5,811 bases of DNA from a virus. Position 1 is the stretch's first letter. The number at the start of each line of letters is the position of its first letter. The position numbers and the translations under genes are program-made. A model generated the notes under the pieces. That model worked only from the letters and a program-made list of their open reading frames with translations. It was not told the origin of the DNA and made no database searches. Shown in pieces: positions 291 to 5,811 of the stretch. The stretch is taken from IMG/VR virus record IMGVR_UViG_3300045988_026689, one strand, 5' to 3'.

Positions 291-1151
291 ATGGAAACAT
301 TATTGAAACTTTTTCCGTACCTCTTGCAAGGACTAAGCATGTTAACAGACATCGCAACAAGCAGCAACCAGAGCAGCGCTAAGAACACCGAGGCAGCGGG
401 CAGCGAGACCACAACCGGCAGCGAGACCACAACCGGCAGCTTAACAGCACCGCAACAGATAGGTGCAGCACAAATCAGCACGCCAACAGGTATCACAACA
501 ATCGGGAATGAAAGCAGCGTAAACAACGCAAACGCACTGCAAATGATGAGCGGACTATTGAGCAACCTCGCGAACGCTGGAAGCCAAGCAAGCGCAAAAA
601 AGTACAACAGCGCAGAAGCGGCAGCAGAACGAGCGTTCCAGAAGGAAATGCGGGGGACGGCCTATCAGGATACAGTAAAGGACATGATCGCGGCGGGCAT
701 CAATCCTATTCTGGCAGCGACCAACGGAGCAACAAGCGCACCATCGGGAGCATCTGCAAGCATTGGCAGCCAACATTACAACCAGCAGAGTGCACAGGCT
801 GCAAGCGTATCAGCGATGTACGAATACGGCAACAACACGGCAGAACTGGCAGAAAAATATTTACAGCTATCAAAACAAAGCTCAAGCGCAAAACAGTACA
901 AAGCAGCCAAAAGCTGGGAACAATCAGCAAGCGAGCTGGCAAGCTCAAGCGCAAAACAAGTACAAAAGTACAGCTATGCAGCTAACAAGTTAGGCACAAG
1001 CCTTGCGGGAGCCGGCAAAGCAGCAAAAGACGCAGCAAAAAAGGCCGGCGCAGCAGCAAAAAAAAACGTTGACAAGACAGCAAAGAGCTATGCAGACAAA
1101 CAGATTGAAAAATACCAATCTGGGCAATTCGACGCATACAGAGGAAACTAA
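291..1151 (+). CDS. VP2: Microviridae DNA pilot / minor capsid protein (VP2, H-protein analogue).
   Basis: 286-aa ORF directly downstream of VP1. It has an Ala/Ser/Gln/Lys-rich low-complexity composition. It contains the block AERAFQKEMRGTAYQDTVKDMIAAGINPILA, which matches the conserved NTAYQR..D.K.AGLNPxL core I recall from gokushovirus VP2 proteins. The start is uncertain: ATG 291 has no adjacent SD (see the split-SD finding) and ATG 339 is the alternative. Confidence 0.85.
   Translation: METLLKLFPYLLQGLSMLTDIATSSNQSSAKNTEAAGSETTTGSETTTGSLTAPQQIGAAQISTPTGITTIGNESSVNNANALQMMSGLLSNLANAGSQASAKKYNSAEAAAERAFQKEMRGTAYQDTVKDMIAAGINPILAATNGATSAPSGASASIGSQHYNQQSAQAASVSAMYEYGNNTAELAEKYLQLSKQSSSAKQYKAAKSWEQSASELASSSAKQVQKYSYAANKLGTSLAGAGKAAKDAAKKAGAAAKKNVDKTAKSYADKQIEKYQSGQFDAYRGN
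399..440 (+). repeat. In-frame 18-nt tandem duplication inside VP2 (ggcagcgagaccacaacc x2 plus a partial ggcagc), encoding GSETTT-GSETTT-GS.
   Basis: Units at 399-416 and 417-434 are identical; the partial third unit is at 435-440. Confidence 0.9.
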
Positions 1152-1226: not shown

Positions 1227-1396
1227 GAGTTTTCAACACTTTCAACAGGTTTTCAACATAAAGTTGCACAAAGAAATCCGTCATAATGACGAACATTCAA
1301 CAATTCAACAAGTTTTCAACAAAGTTTTCAACAGGCAAAAAGGCAATAAATAAACGTAGTAACATTAAAAAAACGAGTTTTCAACGCTTTCAACAC
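1227..1396 (+). repeat. Iteron-like array of nine same-orientation copies of the TTCAAC(A) core, five of them as GTTTTCAAC(A/G), in three clusters.
   Basis: TTCAAC starts at 1232, 1241, 1252 | 1296, 1304, 1315, 1327 | 1380, 1389. Spacing within clusters is 8-12 nt. The outer 22-mers gagttttcaacactttcaacag (1227-1248) and gagttttcaacgctttcaacac (1375-1396) differ at 2 positions. Confidence 0.9.
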
Positions 1397-1412
1397 TACT
1401 ACTACTACTACT
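1395..1412 (+). repeat. (ACT)6 trinucleotide microsatellite in the intergenic region.
   Basis: actactactactactact read directly at 1395-1412, abutting the last TTCAACA copy. Confidence 0.95.
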
Positions 1413-1449
1413 ACAACAAGTTAATAATAAAAGAAAGGGAGGTGTCAAA

Positions 1450-2479: not shown

Positions 2480-2537
2480 CGCGCACAGCGCTTATAAGGA
2501 ATGGATTAGCCGAATTCCGCTGCGCTCCATACGGCAG

Positions 2538-2554
2538 GGCGCTAAAGCGCCTTT
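2538..2554 (+). terminator. Short GC hairpin with a T-tract after VP4 (weak terminator candidate).
   Basis: ggcgc (2538-2542) / taaa / gcgcc (2547-2551), followed by only three T residues (ttt, 2552-2554). The short stem and short U-tract keep confidence low. Confidence 0.35.
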
Positions 2555-2607
2555 CAAAACAAAGGAGCAAAGGCTGGTTACAAATTTATTACAAAAACAC
2601 AAAAACA

Positions 2608-2636
2608 TTGAAAAACCTCTTGACATGCGGTAAAAT
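2608..2636 (+). promoter_or_regulatory. Sigma70-type promoter candidate for the accessory block: TTGAAA-N17-TAAAAT.
   Basis: The -35 TTGAAA is at 2608-2613, followed by an exact 17-nt spacer and the -10 TAAAAT at 2631-2636. The predicted TSS near 2643-2645 lies just upstream of the SD (aaagga/ggtga, 2649-2660) of the ORF starting at 2667. Confidence 0.45.
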
Positions 2637-2666
2637 AAAATCAGAAAGAAAGGATGGTGAAACACC

Positions 2667-2819
2667 ATGAAAGGTTACGATGATTACACAGGACTGTTCA
2701 CAAGCCGCTACTACGCAAAAAAATACGCAAAAGGAGATGAGGTAGTCGTAAAAGTTGAGGGTGGATACAAAGTAATAACCGCCGACTATTATTACAAGAT
2801 CTGGAAAACGCAAAAATGA
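2667..2819 (+). CDS. Hypothetical 50-aa Tyr/Lys-rich protein, translationally coupled to the downstream peptidase.
   Basis: ATG 2667 to TGA 2817-2819: MKGYDDYTGLFTSRYYAKKYAKGDEVVVKVEGGYKVITADYYYKIWKTQK. GGTGA lies 6 nt upstream of the start. The stop overlaps the next start as ATGA (2816-2819). The ORF is too short to appear in the supplied track. It has no hydrophobic segment and I recognise no family. Confidence 0.45.
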   Translation: MKGYDDYTGLFTSRYYAKKYAKGDEVVVKVEGGYKVITADYYYKIWKTQK

Positions 2820-3226
2820 AAGGATTGACAAAAATGATTAAAAGCTACATAATGAACACAGACGGAAACGTGAAGCTTGCGAGACACTTCTCGGTAAAGG
2901 AATTCGCTTGCAAGGACGGGTCACCAGTAGTTTTCATCGACGACTACTTATACACCATCCTGGACATCCTAAGGCATAAGATAGGGAAGCCGGTAATCAT
3001 AACGAGCGGATACAGGACGCCAGAATGGAACAAAAAATGCGGGGGAGCAAAATACAGCTACCACATGCGCGGTATGGCCGCAGATATCCGGGTGGAAGGA
3101 ATGAGCGCAAAACAGCTTGCCAACGAACTGAATGCAATCATACCGGAAGAATGCGGCATTATCGTATACAAGAGCTGGGTGCACTTTGACGTGCGCACCG
3201 GCAAAAAGTACAGAAAGGGGGTGTAA
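2816..3226 (+). CDS. Zinc D,D-/L,D-peptidase of the M15 family (Peptidase_M15_3 / DUF882-like fold); putative peptidoglycan hydrolase (endolysin-like).
   Basis: The 136-aa ORF contains FSVKEFACKDG, LRHKIGKPVIITSGYRTPEWNKKCGGAKYSYHMRGMAADI and WVHFDVR. These give the SGYR...N..GG...S.H..G.A.D ... H.D arrangement of Zn ligands (H, D, H) characteristic of M15 cell-wall peptidases. The start is ambiguous between in-frame ATGs at 2816, 2834 and 2852. Confidence 0.9.
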   Translation: MKGLTKMIKSYIMNTDGNVKLARHFSVKEFACKDGSPVVFIDDYLYTILDILRHKIGKPVIITSGYRTPEWNKKCGGAKYSYHMRGMAADIRVEGMSAKQLANELNAIIPEECGIIVYKSWVHFDVRTGKKYRKGV

Positions 3227-3228
3227 AA

Positions 3229-3345
3229 ATGGCACACAGAAGCGGAGCGGGTCGAGGCGACCAGAAACGATTCACGCAGACCGCAAAACGCGTGAAAAAC
3301 GTCAACGTCCGACCAAAAGTATCACGCGGTGGCATCCGCCTGTAA
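3229..3345 (+). CDS. Small arginine/lysine-rich DNA-binding protein (phiX174 J / Chlamydia-phage ORF8 analogue).
   Basis: ATG 3229 to TAA 3343-3345: MAHRSGAGRGDQKRFTQTAKRVKNVNVRPKVSRGGIRL (38 aa, 10 R/K residues, 1 D). SD aagggggtg lies 6-7 nt upstream. The C-terminal RGGIRL resembles the ...MRGGIRF ending I recall for gokushovirus ORF8 proteins. It is not in the supplied track because it is under 60 aa. Confidence 0.7.
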   Translation: MAHRSGAGRGDQKRFTQTAKRVKNVNVRPKVSRGGIRL

Positions 3346-3348
3346 AAA

Positions 3349-3430
3349 GGCTGCATGCTGAAGGCTGCATGCTGAAGGCTGCATGCTGAAGGCTGCATGC
3401 TGAAGGCTGCATGCTGAAGGCTGCATGCAG
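3349..3430 (+). repeat. Perfect 14-nt tandem repeat (ggctgcatgctgaa) x5 plus a partial sixth copy that ends in the 10-bp palindrome ctgcatgcag.
   Basis: Units at 3349-3362, 3363-3376, 3377-3390, 3391-3404 and 3405-3418 are identical. The sixth copy, ggctgcatgcag (3419-3430), diverges at unit position 11. Each unit contains the palindrome GCATGC. The unit length is not a multiple of 3. Confidence 0.97.
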
Positions 3431-3450
3431 CAAAGAAAGGAGGTGAAGCA

Positions 3451-3555
3451 GTGGACTTTAAGGAAACCATGAACATCCTGATGAAAATCCTTGCAATGGT
3501 GGACAAGATTTACCATGCAGTGGTCAAAGAAGATGATGACAAGAACGAAGAATAA
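3451..3555 (+). CDS. Hypothetical 34-aa protein (GTG start) with an amphipathic N-half and an acidic tail.
   Basis: AAAGGAGGTG (3436-3445) lies 5 nt upstream of GTG 3451; the stop is TAA 3553-3555. Sequence: MDFKETMNILMKILAMVDKIYHAVVKEDDDKNEE. An alternative in-frame ATG at 3469 has no SD. I recognise no family, and the ORF is too short for the supplied track. Confidence 0.4.
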   Translation: MDFKETMNILMKILAMVDKIYHAVVKEDDDKNEE

Positions 3556-3566
3556 AGGAGAAAAAC

Positions 3567-3821
3567 ATGAAACTGAAATTTTACTCGTTCCGCGACGCAC
3601 TAACCAACGGCTACTCTCAGCCGTTTTTGCAGAACAACAGAGCGCAGGCAGTAAGAACGGCACGATGGAAAGCAGACGAAAGCAAGCCGAACGAAATCGA
3701 GGACATCAGCCTCGTTGAGCTGGGCGAATTCGACACGGAAACGGGATACATGAGTGAGGCAGCGCCTGAACACATCGCACGACTCATCGACCTGAAGGAG
3801 ACGACCAATGTTAAATCCTGA
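3567..3821 (+). CDS. VP5: VP5-like small non-structural protein (gokushovirus ORF5 family, proposed phiX174 protein C analogue).
   Basis: 84-aa ORF with AAAGGAG 6 nt upstream. The pattern MKLKFYSFRD......SQPF.....A.A.R.......P.E..D..LVELGEFDTETG matches the conserved layout I recall for microvirus VP5/ORF5 proteins (F.I.D.K...F..PF ... D..L...G.FD..TG). Its position directly upstream of and overlapping VP3 is canonical. Confidence 0.6.
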   Translation: MKLKFYSFRDALTNGYSQPFLQNNRAQAVRTARWKADESKPNEIEDISLVELGEFDTETGYMSEAAPEHIARLIDLKETTNVKS

Positions 3822-4230
3822 AATGATGGTGCGATACTTCGGGCTGCCGACAGAAAGAAAGACAAACAATTCTGGCAGCAAGACAGAACCAACATGGAAA
3901 GCAGTCAAACGACCAAACGGCACTACCGACTACATCCAGCAGCCGGACGAAAACATATACGAGAAAATCCAAAAAGCGGGCGAGGGCTACGACCTTGCAA
4001 GCGCAATCGCGAGGCTGGAAGCTGGAGACACCAGCATCAAAGCAAAAAGCGTGATATACACCGAGGGCACCGGCCTCGAAAATCTACCAAAAGATATCAT
4101 GACAATGCACGAAAAAGCAAACGCAGCAGCCGAAACACTGGAAAAACTGAAACAGATGAAAAAGAACGAACAACCGAAGCCGGAAGAAGAAAAAAAGGAA
4201 GAGGTGAAGGACAACGAACAGAAACAGTGA
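3808..4230 (+). CDS. VP3: Internal scaffolding protein (VP3, Chlamydia-phage scaffold family).
   Basis: 140-aa ORF with GAAGGAG 7 nt upstream. It overlaps the VP5 3' end by 14 nt and lies immediately upstream of VP1. NIYEKIQKAGEGYDLASAIARLEAGDTS......YTEGTG...LPKDIMTMHEKANAAAETLEKL resembles the conserved central part of gokushovirus VP3. It has a highly charged Lys/Glu C-tail. Confidence 0.72.
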   Translation: MLNPEMMVRYFGLPTERKTNNSGSKTEPTWKAVKRPNGTTDYIQQPDENIYEKIQKAGEGYDLASAIARLEAGDTSIKAKSVIYTEGTGLENLPKDIMTMHEKANAAAETLEKLKQMKKNEQPKPEEEKKEEVKDNEQKQ

Positions 4231-4255: not shown

Positions 4256-5811
4256 ATGGAGCGACCACGAAGCAAATTTGACCGAAGTCATCAGCTCTTG
4301 ACGACCATTAACGAGGGCGAACTCGTTCCAATCTACTGCGACGAAGTACTGCCGGGTGATACCGCACGTATTCGTCTGAACGGCCTTATCCGTATGAGTA
4401 CACCCATCTATCCAGTGATGGATAACTGCTATATGGACACATACTTCTTCTTTGTCCCGTGCCGTCTGCTGTGGGAGCACTGGCAAAACATGTTTGGGGA
4501 GAATGACACCGATTACTGGGCAGAGAAAACCGAATACAGCACGCCGACATGCAAAATTGGCGGCAAATCCGGGCTTGCAAATGGCAGCATCGGCGACTAC
4601 TTCGGACTGCCGACCGAAGTAAAAAATGAAATCCAAGTTAACGCGCTGCCTATCAGAGCATACGCAATGATCTACAACGAATGGTTTCGAGACGAAAATC
4701 TGGAAGCACCGCTAATGCTAGGCTACAAAAAAACCGATGATGCAGCAAAAGACGATTCACCGGGACCGGCAAACGCATACGCCAACCAACCGTCGTTAAC
4801 AACAAACACCAACGAAGCAAGCATGTACGGGAGAAAACCGGCCAAAGCGGGTAAGTTCCACGACTACTTCACGTCCTGCCTCCCTTCACCGTTGAAATCT
4901 GACCCTGTGGAAATCAGCCTGACAGGAGACGCACCGGTCGTTATGGGCAACTACAACGAAGTAACCGGCAAGGTAGAAGCATTTGACATGGATACGAATG
5001 TCTGGTTCAACGGCAAAGGCGCAGGAGCGGGGCGAGCCTTCAACCGGTATTACCAGAATACACAACCAGGATACCCGGCGGTAGAACTGGCAGGCCTAGA
5101 AACCAACGGAGCAACAACTCAGCCAGACGGCGGCAACATCCTAACAGGCAACCTATACGCCAACCTGAACAACGTGACGGCAATCAAAATTGAGGATTTG
5201 CGAATGGCTATTGCCTTACAGCACATTTTCGAGACTGATGCACGAAACGGCACGCGCTACCGCGAATTCCTAAGCGGAACATGGGGCGTAACGTCACCGG
5301 ACAGCCGTCTGCAGATTCCGGAATACATCGGCGGTCAGCGCATAGCAATCAACGTCAATCAGGTCGTACAGACGAGCCAGACGGACACGACAACCGGACA
5401 GGCACTGGGCAATACAGCAGCATACAGTCTGACCACATGCAGTAAGCAGATGGTTGACTATGCAGCAACCGAATACGGCTATATCATCGGTCTGGCAGTG
5501 GTACGAGTGGAGCACAGCTATCAGCAGGGACTTGCGACCAAGTGGACACGCGGTGGAAGATTTACCTACTACGACCCGCGACTGGCAACACTGGGAGAGC
5601 AGCCGGTATACAACAGAGAAATCTACGCACAGGGCACGCCCGAAGATAACGAAATCTTCGGGTACCAAGAAGCTTGGGCGGACTACCGCTACAAGCCATC
5701 TTACGTAACCGGAGAAATGAGGTCGAACTACGCGACAAGTCTGGACGCATGGCACTATGCAGACGATTATAACACGCTGCCGAGACTGTCAGCGGAATGG
5801 ATACAAGAGGG
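4256..5811 (+). CDS. VP1: Microviridae major capsid protein (VP1 / F-protein family). This is the N-terminal ~519 codons; the gene continues across the circular junction into 1-252, for 562 aa in total.
   Basis: Frame 2 has no stop codon from ATG 4256 to the window end. It is absent from the ORF track only because it has no stop in the window. Translation: MERPRSKFDRSHQLLTTINEGELVPIYCDEVLPGDTARIRLNGLIRMSTPIYPVMDNCYMDTYFFFVPCRLLWEHWQNMFGE...RAYAMIYNEWFRDENL. These are hallmark conserved blocks of microvirus capsid proteins. The frame at 5693 equals the frame of position 1. Confidence 0.95.
   Translation, partial: MERPRSKFDRSHQLLTTINEGELVPIYCDEVLPGDTARIRLNGLIRMSTPIYPVMDNCYMDTYFFFVPCRLLWEHWQNMFGENDTDYWAEKTEYSTPTCKIGGKSGLANGSIGDYFGLPTEVKNEIQVNALPIRAYAMIYNEWFRDENLEAPLMLGYKKTDDAAKDDSPGPANAYANQPSLTTNTNEASMYGRKPAKAGKFHDYFTSCLPSPLKSDPVEISLTGDAPVVMGNYNEVTGKVEAFDMDTNVWFNGKGAGAGRAFNRYYQNTQPGYPAVELAGLETNGATTQPDGGNILTGNLYANLNNVTAIKIEDLRMAIALQHIFETDARNGTRYREFLSGTWGVTSPDSRLQIPEYIGGQRIAINVNQVVQTSQTDTTTGQALGNTAAYSLTTCSKQMVDYAATEYGYIIGLAVVRVEHSYQQGLATKWTRGGRFTYYDPRLATLGEQPVYNREIYAQGTPEDNEIFGYQEAWADYRYKPSYVTGEMRSNYATSLDAWHYADDYNTLPRLSAEWIQE
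5693..5811. repeat. Terminal direct repeat, right copy (identical to 1-119).
   Basis: Same as the left copy. It runs to the last base of the window, as expected for an end overlap of a circular contig. Confidence 0.95.

Follow-up and report, generated by a model that had tools for sequence, protein, structure and literature searches.

The 5,811-nucleotide (nt) stretch of virus DNA analysed here (IMG/VR record IMGVR_UViG_3300045988_026689; hereafter the window) carries the genome of a gut gokushovirus, and the subject of this work is the region between its VP4 and VP5 genes at positions 2480–3566, hereafter the block. Because the first and last 119 bases of the window are identical, the genome is circular with a length of 5,692 nt. 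All genes are carried on the + strand: VP1 (which runs across the window ends), VP2, VP4, the block, VP5 and VP3. Among GenBank records, the human gut gokushovirus KX513876 is closest, being 86% identical with 79% of the genome covered.

The block is bordered on the left by VP4, the Rep gene (1475–2479, + strand; Pfam PF23343, 7.5e-20; PHROG 942, 5e-107), and on the right by VP5 (3567–3821, +; Pfam PF20577, Phage_ORF5, 1.9e-13). It opens with a conserved non-coding element containing three hairpins, NCR2 (2479–2575, +), and this is followed by a predicted promoter of the sigma-70/sigma-A type, TTGAAA-N17-TAAAAT (2608–2636, +). Next come four open reading frames (ORFs), all of which lie where an earlier note on this DNA, made from the letters, had placed them. 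These are ORF50 (2667–2819, +), which encodes a small, soluble, tyrosine- and lysine-rich protein of an unannotated family and occupies an optional slot; a gene for an M15_3 zinc peptidase of the LAS type, a candidate endolysin of 136 amino acids (aa), here called M15 (2816–3226, +; PF08291, PHROG 894); ORF38 (3229–3345, +), which encodes a basic, DNA-binding protein resembling ORF8/J; and ORF34 (3451–3555, +), a small core gene with a GTG start. The spacer between the last two contains a 14-nt tandem repeat (unit AAGGCTGCATGCTG; 3347–3428, +) and the Shine–Dalgarno sequence AAGGAGGTG (3437–3445, +), which is positioned 5 nt before the GTG at 3451 and is near-perfect, as the earlier note had it.

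The block is probably a mosaic accessory arm of the circular genome, made of parts with separate histories, and not one inserted cassette. This reading comes from comparison with relatives. An M15 protein query of IMG/VR returned 239 relatives, from which 80 whole or near-whole genomes were taken; presence counts for this M15-selected set run over 85 genomes. A VP4 query gave 55 loci, retrieved independently of M15, and a 20-nt pattern from the core of the NCR2 leader retrieved at least 120 IMG/VR contigs, microvirus-sized throughout.

The M15-selected genomes split into two deeply diverged clades, A and B. Median identity to the window in clade A is 78% for VP1, 83% for VP2, 94% for VP4, 93% for VP5 and 82% for VP3. 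The corresponding values in clade B are 40.5% for VP1 and 38% for both VP2 and VP4, with VP5 and VP3 being undetectable. For M15, the medians are 83.7% in clade A and 82.9% in clade B. At the DNA level, similarity between the clades is limited to positions 1231–1430, 2479–2600 and 2830–3235, with a further short piece at the VP1 end being shared by only about 40% of clade B genomes.

M15 alleles are 82.4% identical within clade A, 82.0% within clade B and 81.5% between the two, and the nearest allele lies in clade B for 14 of the 33 clade A alleles. As identity is about equal within and between clades while that of the core proteins drops to 38–40%, M15 has been exchanged repeatedly. The same is seen closer to home: the window is 86% identical to KX513876 in DNA, yet the M15 proteins are just 68% identical, so the allele was swapped relative to this record. 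The earlier note proposed comparing the composition of the block with that of the core, and no anomaly came to light, the GC content being 46.0% against 47.3% for the genome, with deviations ranking 81st of 114 windows for dinucleotides and 22nd of 114 for trinucleotides. This unremarkable composition points to exchange within one gene pool rather than to recent import.

Every complete genome retrieved with VP4 has M15 between VP4 and VP5, the alleles being 40–84% identical to that of the window, and in eight VP4-retrieved genomes the gene is placed after ORF8 and ORF34 instead of before them. The VP4–VP5 junction is, as the earlier note suspected, a recurrent variable and insertion region among the relatives compared. 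Its premise that VP4, VP5 and VP3 are adjacent on canonical gokushovirus maps is only partly right, since the order is VP1-VP2-VP3-VP5-J-VP4 in phiMH2K and VP1-VP2-VP3-ORF8-ORF4-ORF5 in Chp2. It had also allowed that the block might prove universal and already annotated, or its small ORFs unconserved. The presence of M15 in the VP4–VP5 interval is indeed universal among complete, VP4-matched IMG/VR relatives, and is both annotated and published; the small ORFs are still conserved and selected. Here, the median ratio of nonsynonymous to synonymous substitution rates (dN/dS) is 0.21 for ORF50, 0.08–0.11 for ORF34 and 0.055–0.106 for ORF38, which agrees with the purifying selection expected of them, and it is 0.15–0.17 for M15.

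The assignment of M15 comes from a match to Pfam Peptidase_M15_3 (PF08291) with an E-value of 9.8e-23 and 80.8 bits (cut-off 23.2), spanning profile positions 2–108 of 108, and from a match to PHROG 894, ‘endolysin’, at 3.7e-42. The family motif SxHxxGxAxD is present as SYHMRGMAADI, which aligns with NSRHMYGHAADL of the zinc D-Ala-D-Ala carboxypeptidase 1lbu, and WVHFD is found near the C-terminus. The zinc-binding residues are presumably those known for the family, namely H-x6-D within SxHxxGxAxD and the C-terminal His.

Peptidases of the M15_3 type were described in five gut gokushoviruses by Roux et al. 2012 (PMC3394797), who reported their Faecalibacterium affinity and an adjacent unknown ORF, and proposed an endolysin role. 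The gene in the window agrees with theirs, and with those of the GenBank records KX513876, KX513877, KX513868, MG945447 and others, in its PF08291 domain, virus group, habitat and position downstream of VP4 and before VP5, VP3 and VP1, and it shares their affinity to Faecalibacterium. In GenBank, the gene is labelled ‘peptidase M15’ in KX513876 and ‘similar to peptidase’ in MG945447. Kirchberger, Martinez and Ochman 2022 (PMC9239249) compared MG945328 with MG945336, in which VP1 is 21% and the peptidase 74% identical, the latter over a stretch of about 700 nt where nucleotide identity is raised, and they termed recombination of the peptidase region occasional. As in their case, the peptidase here is inside an identity island between otherwise dissimilar microviruses. 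In contrast to it, the alleles here are fully intermixed across about 80 genomes and two clades, and the island has defined non-coding flanks, NCR1 and NCR2, as well as a variable gene slot. M15 peptidases in gut gokushoviruses and their recombination are therefore already known from these two papers; what goes beyond them is the covarying structure of NCR2, the optional slot and its gene ORF50, which is common to a tailed phage, the overlooked but conserved ORF34 and the variable-copy repeat.

The NCR2 element is about 97 nt long, begins on the final base of the VP4 stop codon and is 80–94% identical in nucleotide sequence across clades A and B. Helix 1 is formed by 2481–2484 with 2488–2491, helix 2 by 2509–2515 with 2529–2535, and helix 3 (GGCGC-TAAA-GCGCC, loop TAAA) by 2537–2542 with 2547–2552. 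The earlier note described a structured leader at 2481–2554. Folded as a single sequence, this leader is not more stable than shuffles (z −0.57 and −0.66), and a helix taken from that fold was rejected after failing the covariation test; structure is evident in an alignment of 44 distinct sequences. Since single-sequence folding is not significant, it is covariation that carries the claim of a structured leader.

In this alignment, 100% of the helix 2 cells are paired, and compensatory changes affect four of the six pairs in this helix. One pair covaries in helix 3, which also has G-T intermediates in 6 sequences; these would become C-A mismatches if read on the opposite strand. Both-sided changes are found at five NCR2 pairs and 95.5% of cells are paired, compared to 14.6–49.1% in a control where the partners were slid by 1–3 columns. 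The covariation score is 0.182 against 0.092 for shuffled alignments, with 0 of 500 shuffles equalling it, and RNAalifold independently recovers the same helices. NCR2 would act on the + strand, as either viral single-stranded DNA (ssDNA) or mRNA.

When searched for on the gene-sense strand, NCR2 is present in 77 of 85 M15-selected genomes and in 46 of 46 pattern-retrieved contigs, and it keeps one orientation relative to the genes wherever it is found. M15 follows within 76–541 nt in 44 of these 46 contigs. NCR2 comes after VP4 in every VP4-selected relative having at least 92% VP4 identity and a covered junction, whatever the allele or position of M15; it is absent from a subclade at about 80% VP4 identity and from a further group that lacks M15, clade C. 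In clade B, the element does not adjoin VP4. An Rfam scan of the whole window gave no match to NCR2, the only hit being a sub-threshold one to the L20 leader that is taken as chance.

Elements with which NCR2 can be compared include the PriA n′ site of phiX174, the complementary-strand origin of G4 and the single-strand origin (sso) cassettes of rolling-circle plasmids. Similar to the latter, NCR2 is common to replicons with differing Rep proteins. In small microviruses, conserved hairpins next to Rep have compensatory changes and were tentatively tied to negative-strand initiation (PMC9865509). NCR2 resembles these in being structured, intergenic, on the viral strand, next to Rep and subject to compensatory substitution, but it has no sequence similarity to them or to the phiX174, G4 and sso elements. 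The most plausible function of NCR2 would be that of a complementary-strand initiation signal, with a signal acting at the RNA level in termination, processing or stability being the main alternative.

NCR2 might instead be nothing more than the terminator of the Rep gene joined to the leader of the next operon, and its conservation between clades a passive by-product of the recombination that carries M15. The position of NCR2 right after the VP4 stop codon, the promoter downstream of it, and the GC-rich stem of hairpin 3 followed by TTTC or ATTC are what such an arrangement predicts. However, the T-tract comprises just 2–3 T and was not flagged by the terminator scan, and the conservation of helix 2 and of the loops far exceeds what a terminator needs. 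Further, NCR2 follows VP4 at VP4 identities of at least 92% even when M15 is elsewhere or a different allele, and in clade B it does not adjoin VP4 at all. This explanation is unlikely.

A companion element, NCR1, is located outside the block at 1231–1430 (+) and is one of the three DNA segments common to both clades, with an identity of 74–90% between them. It contains nine same-strand copies of TTCAAC[A/G], where 1.5 would be expected in the whole window, arranged around a central palindrome, CGTCATAATGACG. These repeats are taken to resemble iterons or DnaA boxes (TTTTCAACA vs TTATCCACA). NCR1 precedes VP4 in clade A and follows it in clade B, where the distance to NCR2 is usually 10 nt. 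Using VP4-based clade calls, NCR1 beside NCR2 is inverted in 38 genomes and direct in 2 (L003 and L011); it is inverted in 3 unassigned genomes as well, and direct in L047, where it is 64 nt away. The direct form is found in at least two separate backgrounds. Six clade B genomes (L003, L004, L007, L015, L016 and L080) have long, alternating, GC-rich palindromes such as TTTTCGCGCGTGCGCACGCGCGCGAAAA about 100–200 nt upstream of NCR1, and NCR2 itself opens with the similar ACGCGCACAGCGC. Such near-palindromic flanks could mediate the inversion of NCR1.

The earlier note gave the block its own promoter, and comparison with relatives supports this prediction. The sequence at 2608–2636 matches the consensus at 10 of 12 positions, and a match of at least 10/12 to TTGACA-N16–18-TATAAT is present in 53 of 74 relatives (72%) in the 150 nt that follow hairpin 3, whereas windows of equal length elsewhere in these genomes score as high in only 2% of cases. 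Twelve relatives have a perfect TTGACA-N17-TATAAT after hairpin 3. Across the window, promoter-like sites are not in excess (7 found against 5.4 ± 2.9 expected), so that support for the promoter comes from the recurrence of its position in relatives and not from the overall site count. The predicted promoter would start a transcript covering ORF50, M15, ORF8, ORF34, VP5 and onward. Genes downstream of it overlap or are separated by 2–11 nt, except at the spacer bearing the repeat, and a + strand scan found no terminator-like site between the promoter and the end of VP1.

The highest-scoring promoter-like sequence of the window, TTGACA-N17-CATAAT (11/12), is found at 2825–2853, within the 5′ part of the M15 ORF. 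Of the three candidate M15 starts, those at 2816 and 2834 lie upstream of it, and it overlaps the one at 2852. This match is probably spurious, yet it leaves the true start of M15 uncertain. Just after VP1, at 263–282, there is a GC-rich, terminator-like hairpin with a T-run (AGCCTCGCAAAAGCGAGGCT then ATTTTTG), which about 40% of clade B genomes retain in part, and another follows VP2 at about 1158–1190 (GGGGGGTGACAAAACATCCCCC then TTTTTT).

ORF38 and ORF34 belong to the core, as both occur in every assessable genome, those without M15 included. ORF38 is found in 85 of 85 M15-selected genomes and matches PHROG 10695 (3.4e-6). Its 38-aa product ends in SRGGIRL, compared to MRGGIRL in the 38-aa J-like protein of the Bdellovibrio phage phiMH2K and MRGGIRF in ORF8 of the Chlamydia phage Chp2. 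In size (about 38–44 aa), basic character, C-terminal RGGIR(L/F) and universal presence in the group, it is an ORF8/J-like protein. It shares with the Chp2 and phiMH2K proteins its basic nature and (M/S)RGGIR(L/F) end, and differs from them in that the N-terminal half is weakly similar and the position in the gene order is not the same.

The ORF34 family is likewise present in 85 of 85 M15-selected genomes, in VP4-selected genomes and in clade C, whose genomes of 5.2–5.3 kb have neither M15 nor NCR2. It occurs in 31 GenBank records, nearly all of which lack an annotation for it. The common allele is MALIKVKDVKEAIALMMNILEKLDEIYHALKDANKDKE. The ORF34 product is an amphipathic, probably helical peptide, and there is no significant match to any family in the searches made, Pfam and PHROGs among them. 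In clade B, ORF34 is directly after M15 and before ORF8; in clade A, it is after ORF8. In four clade C genomes, L114–L117 (KT264799, MG945157, MG945199 and MG945423), a conserved ORF of about 68 aa (...YEYIIRKLYRQLKKAYTVEEAKTIVEEIYK...) lies directly upstream of ORF34, and in KT264799 this is called ‘VP5’.

The 14-nt repeat between ORF38 and ORF34 is present and perfect (Tandem Repeats Finder score 164, 100% matches), as the earlier note described, with 5.9 copies and not the 5.7 it counted. Besides the window, only L006 (about 3.9 copies) and L005 carry it, the latter in a complex array that spans about 240 nt and in which the ribosome-binding site is duplicated, and a two-unit pattern found no IMG/VR contig beyond these two relatives. 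Over the whole genome, the window and L005 share about 96.6% identity. In other clade A genomes, the spacer between ORF8 and ORF34 is about 30 nt (maximum 66 nt) and contains the Shine–Dalgarno sequence without the repeat. The repeat is probably a slippage-prone, lineage-specific expansion that is neutral or mildly regulatory.

A functional repeat, that is, an array of regulatory hairpins for ORF34 translation or an array for protein binding, is doubtful. Its appeal comes from the placement of a perfect array exactly between the ORF8 stop and the ORF34 ribosome-binding site, from the palindrome GCATGC in each unit and from the co-occurrence with a GTG-start allele of ORF34. That allele, however, is found free of the repeat in L087 and L106–L111, and a spacer of about 30 nt suffices in relatives. 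The array is confined to three genomes, varies in copy number between genomes that are about 96% identical, and folds no more stably than shuffles (z −0.88).

The host of this virus is likely a Gram-positive member of the Clostridia, as Roux et al. speculated. Relatives of VP1 (42–48% identity) are integrated in large Clostridia contigs, including those of the isolates Oscillibacter sp. PC13 and Muriventricola aceti, and the gene order of the Oscillibacter prophage is VP4-ORF8-M15-VP5-VP3-VP1-VP2. The closest endolysins outside the microviruses are those of Faecalibacterium phages, at about 45% identity, and a phage of about 15 kb that carries an ORF50 homologue (described below) has an SPP1-type holin. 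The promoters and ribosome-binding sites presumably fit a host of the sigma-70/sigma-A, AGGAGG type, such as a Firmicute.

The prophage loci are L128 (Oscillibacter sp. PC13, NZ_FOXE01000003), L132 (Muriventricola aceti), L121, L123, L124, L126 and L130 (VP1 39–47% identical), on contigs spanning 15–317 kb, of which six of the seven are 76–317 kb. The prophages are opened either between VP2 and VP4 or between VP4 and ORF8, and are flanked by candidate direct repeats of 14–20 nt, for which no tie to NCR1 or NCR2 is established. Separately, a 5.7-kb contig, L119 (CAVKUS010000079), with VP1 80% and VP4 92% identical to the window, is filed in a metagenome-assembled genome of ‘Bacteroides sp. CAG:545’; this placement is most likely a binning artefact and not host evidence.

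In such a host, M15 would cut the peptide stems of peptidoglycan and thereby release progeny. The arrangement differs from a canonical holin–endolysin cassette in that the window encodes no membrane partner, ORF50 and ORF34 being soluble or amphipathic. It is improbable that the enzyme works instead at entry, as a virion-associated wall hydrolase that helps the DNA cross the thick peptidoglycan of a Gram-positive cell. Hydrolases attached to the virion are frequent among tailed phages that infect Gram-positive bacteria, and such a role would suit both the likely Clostridia hosts and a genome in which neither holin nor signal peptide is found. However, the best family match of M15 is to PHROG 894, ‘endolysin’, its closest relatives outside the microviruses are annotated as endolysins, and neither fusion nor homology to a structural protein was seen. 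Clade C genomes do without M15, which makes it dispensable for the virion.

The interval between NCR2 and M15, in which ORF50 resides, behaves as an optional slot. Its length is bimodal over 132 distinct intervals, with 55 being at most 150 nt and 64 being 200–400 nt, and in about 42% of the distinct intervals the slot is too short for any ORF. These figures use only the interval lengths of a slot-ORF census, whose ATG-only caller missed ORFs that overlap the M15 start. Occupied slots hold one of at least eight unrelated families of small ORF, several of which are present in both clades and some of which are found in genomes lacking M15 too; function searches with the other slot families, as with ORF34, gave nothing significant. 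The variable region of KT264799 contains an ORF resembling slot family 2.

ORF50 is found in 5 of 85 M15-selected genomes. Nine of its 50 residues are Tyr, and its stop codon overlaps the M15 start (ATGA, 2816–2819). Homologues form 32 clusters at 67–100% identity with conservative substitutions, and a profile search extends this to 117 clusters at the 50% level, mostly of 42–65 aa. In a few members, the family forms the C-terminal domain of proteins of 100–190 aa, which themselves have no annotated domains. The AlphaFold2 model has a beta-beta-alpha-beta-beta-alpha fold with a predicted local distance difference test (pLDDT) score of 89. There is no match in Pfam, PHROGs or NCBIfam and none in the PDB by sequence or fold, and BFVD yields only uncharacterised phage proteins.

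An ORF50 homologue with 82% protein identity occupies the first gene position at one end of a contig of about 15 kb that also encodes a DNA polymerase (PHROG 1907, 9e-43), the SPP1-type holin and a protein with a weak connector match. DNA homology of this contig to the window is 80% and covers exactly window positions 2661–2824, with none in the flanks. Such contigs are represented by L118:261–422 and by protein clusters P0020 and P0023, and the contig end begins AAATATACG. Because the homology does not extend past the gene and the homologue's protein cluster recurs on at least eight independent contigs of 15.0–15.6 kb, an assembly chimera was considered and rejected. In this phage, the homologue heads the DNA-polymerase operon about 6 kb from the holin and on the opposite strand, and M15 is absent from the 8.4 kb examined. 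As the slot is often empty and the homologue heads a tailed-phage DNA-polymerase operon, ORF50 would act apart from M15, as a host-interaction or early-type protein.

That ORF50 is a dedicated partner of the peptidase, such as a chaperone, export helper, inhibitor or timing factor, has a low probability. The small Gp1 encoded just upstream of lysA in the mycobacteriophage Ms6 is an analogue, ORF50 is immediately upstream of M15 and translationally coupled to it through the ATGA at 2816–2819, and a helper would be welcome in a genome without a holin. Yet very similar M15 alleles have an unrelated ORF upstream or the empty slot noted above, and slot families are found in genomes without M15. In addition, about 335 nt separate the ORF50 homologue from M15 in MG945233, and the copy in the 15-kb podovirus belongs to the DNA-polymerase operon, distant from the holin and on the other strand.

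The conserved flanks of the slot, NCR2 upstream and M15 downstream, probably anchor homologous recombination during co-infection, which would move M15 alleles and slot genes across lineages. Tentatively, the NCR2–M15 interval may be a recombination-anchored slot through which small host-interaction genes, for anti-defence or take-over, are traded among divergent microvirus lineages and with the tailed double-stranded DNA (dsDNA) phages of the same Clostridia hosts, with the portable NCR2 and NCR1 signals making the arm interchangeable. ORF50, with about 80% DNA identity limited to the gene alone, is the clearest case for gene trading with tailed phages. The slot is similar to the morons and accessory slots of tailed phages in having an optional gene with a promoter upstream, variability among close relatives and conserved flanks. 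It differs in belonging to a 5.7-kb ssDNA genome, in lacking a dedicated terminator and in sharing its promoter with M15 and the downstream genes.

It follows from the above that the cassette proposed by the earlier note does not describe the block: M15 and ORF50 are indeed accessory and horizontally exchanged, while ORF38 and ORF34 are core, so that the four ORFs neither form a unit nor travel together. A single acquired lysis/host-interaction cassette of about 1.1 kb between VP4 and VP5 is highly improbable, even with four real ORFs under selection, a promoter at the block start and an M15 of foreign origin (Roux 2012), as ORF38 and ORF34 are in every assessable genome, M15-less ones included, ORF50 is in 5 of 85, the tandem repeat is in three, close relatives differ in where M15 lies with respect to ORF8 and ORF34, and the composition is not anomalous.

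Several points count against the mosaic reading or its parts. The M15-selected set (80 loci) was picked by M15 similarity, which inflates the apparent homogeneity of the alleles; the VP4- and NCR2-selected sets hold M15 alleles at 40–65% identity as well. No holin-, pinholin- or amurin-like membrane protein is encoded among + strand ORFs of at least 25 aa, overprinted ones included, where the highest 18-residue Kyte–Doolittle mean is 1.21, in ORF34, well below transmembrane values. The M15 N-terminus, MKGLTKMIKSYIMNTDGNVKLARHF, lacks a hydrophobic stretch and hence has neither a secretion signal nor a signal-arrest-release (SAR) domain. Neither a holin nor a signal would thus account for the route of the peptidase to the wall. 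For NCR2, present data fit ssDNA and RNA roles alike, and the short T-tract makes a terminator role for hairpin 3 weak. Finally, the promoter call comes from consensus matching, and the proposed host-interaction role of ORF50 from its genomic context.

Elsewhere in the genome, VP2 occupies 291–1151 (+) and is separated from VP4 by a non-coding stretch at 1152–1474, and VP3 is at 3808–4230 (+). A perfect 18-nt tandem repeat of 2.3 copies at 399–440 encodes GSETTT repeats in the N-terminal part of VP2, the pilot protein. In temperate microviruses, superinfection exclusion has been tied to hypervariable regions of this protein (Kirchberger et al. 2021, as cited in PMC9239249). VP1 is hypervariable at about 4950–5150, where DNA aligns in just about 12% of clade A relatives; such variability would be expected of the loop behind the gokushovirus ‘mushroom’ protrusion.

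Taken together, the recombination unit around the gokushovirus peptidase is now defined as two conserved non-coding elements, a promoter, an optional slot and M15, and the exchange of M15 across deeply divergent lineages looks pervasive rather than occasional. NCR2 is a candidate cis-element backed by covariation, and the literature searched did not describe replication signals for this group. If genes are traded through the slot as tentatively proposed, NCR2 and the orientation-variable, repeat-bearing NCR1 module would supply host-specific signals for replication and transcription. ORF34 is a conserved, small core gene missed by almost all deposited annotations, and ORF50 documents a small gene common to an ssDNA microvirus and a dsDNA tailed phage. 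Trading through the slot, if true, would contradict the published picture in which microviruses, peptidases and methyltransferases aside, have almost no exchange with the wider phage gene pool. With a Clostridia host, how an endolysin gains access to the wall without a holin becomes a concrete question of gokushovirus lysis.

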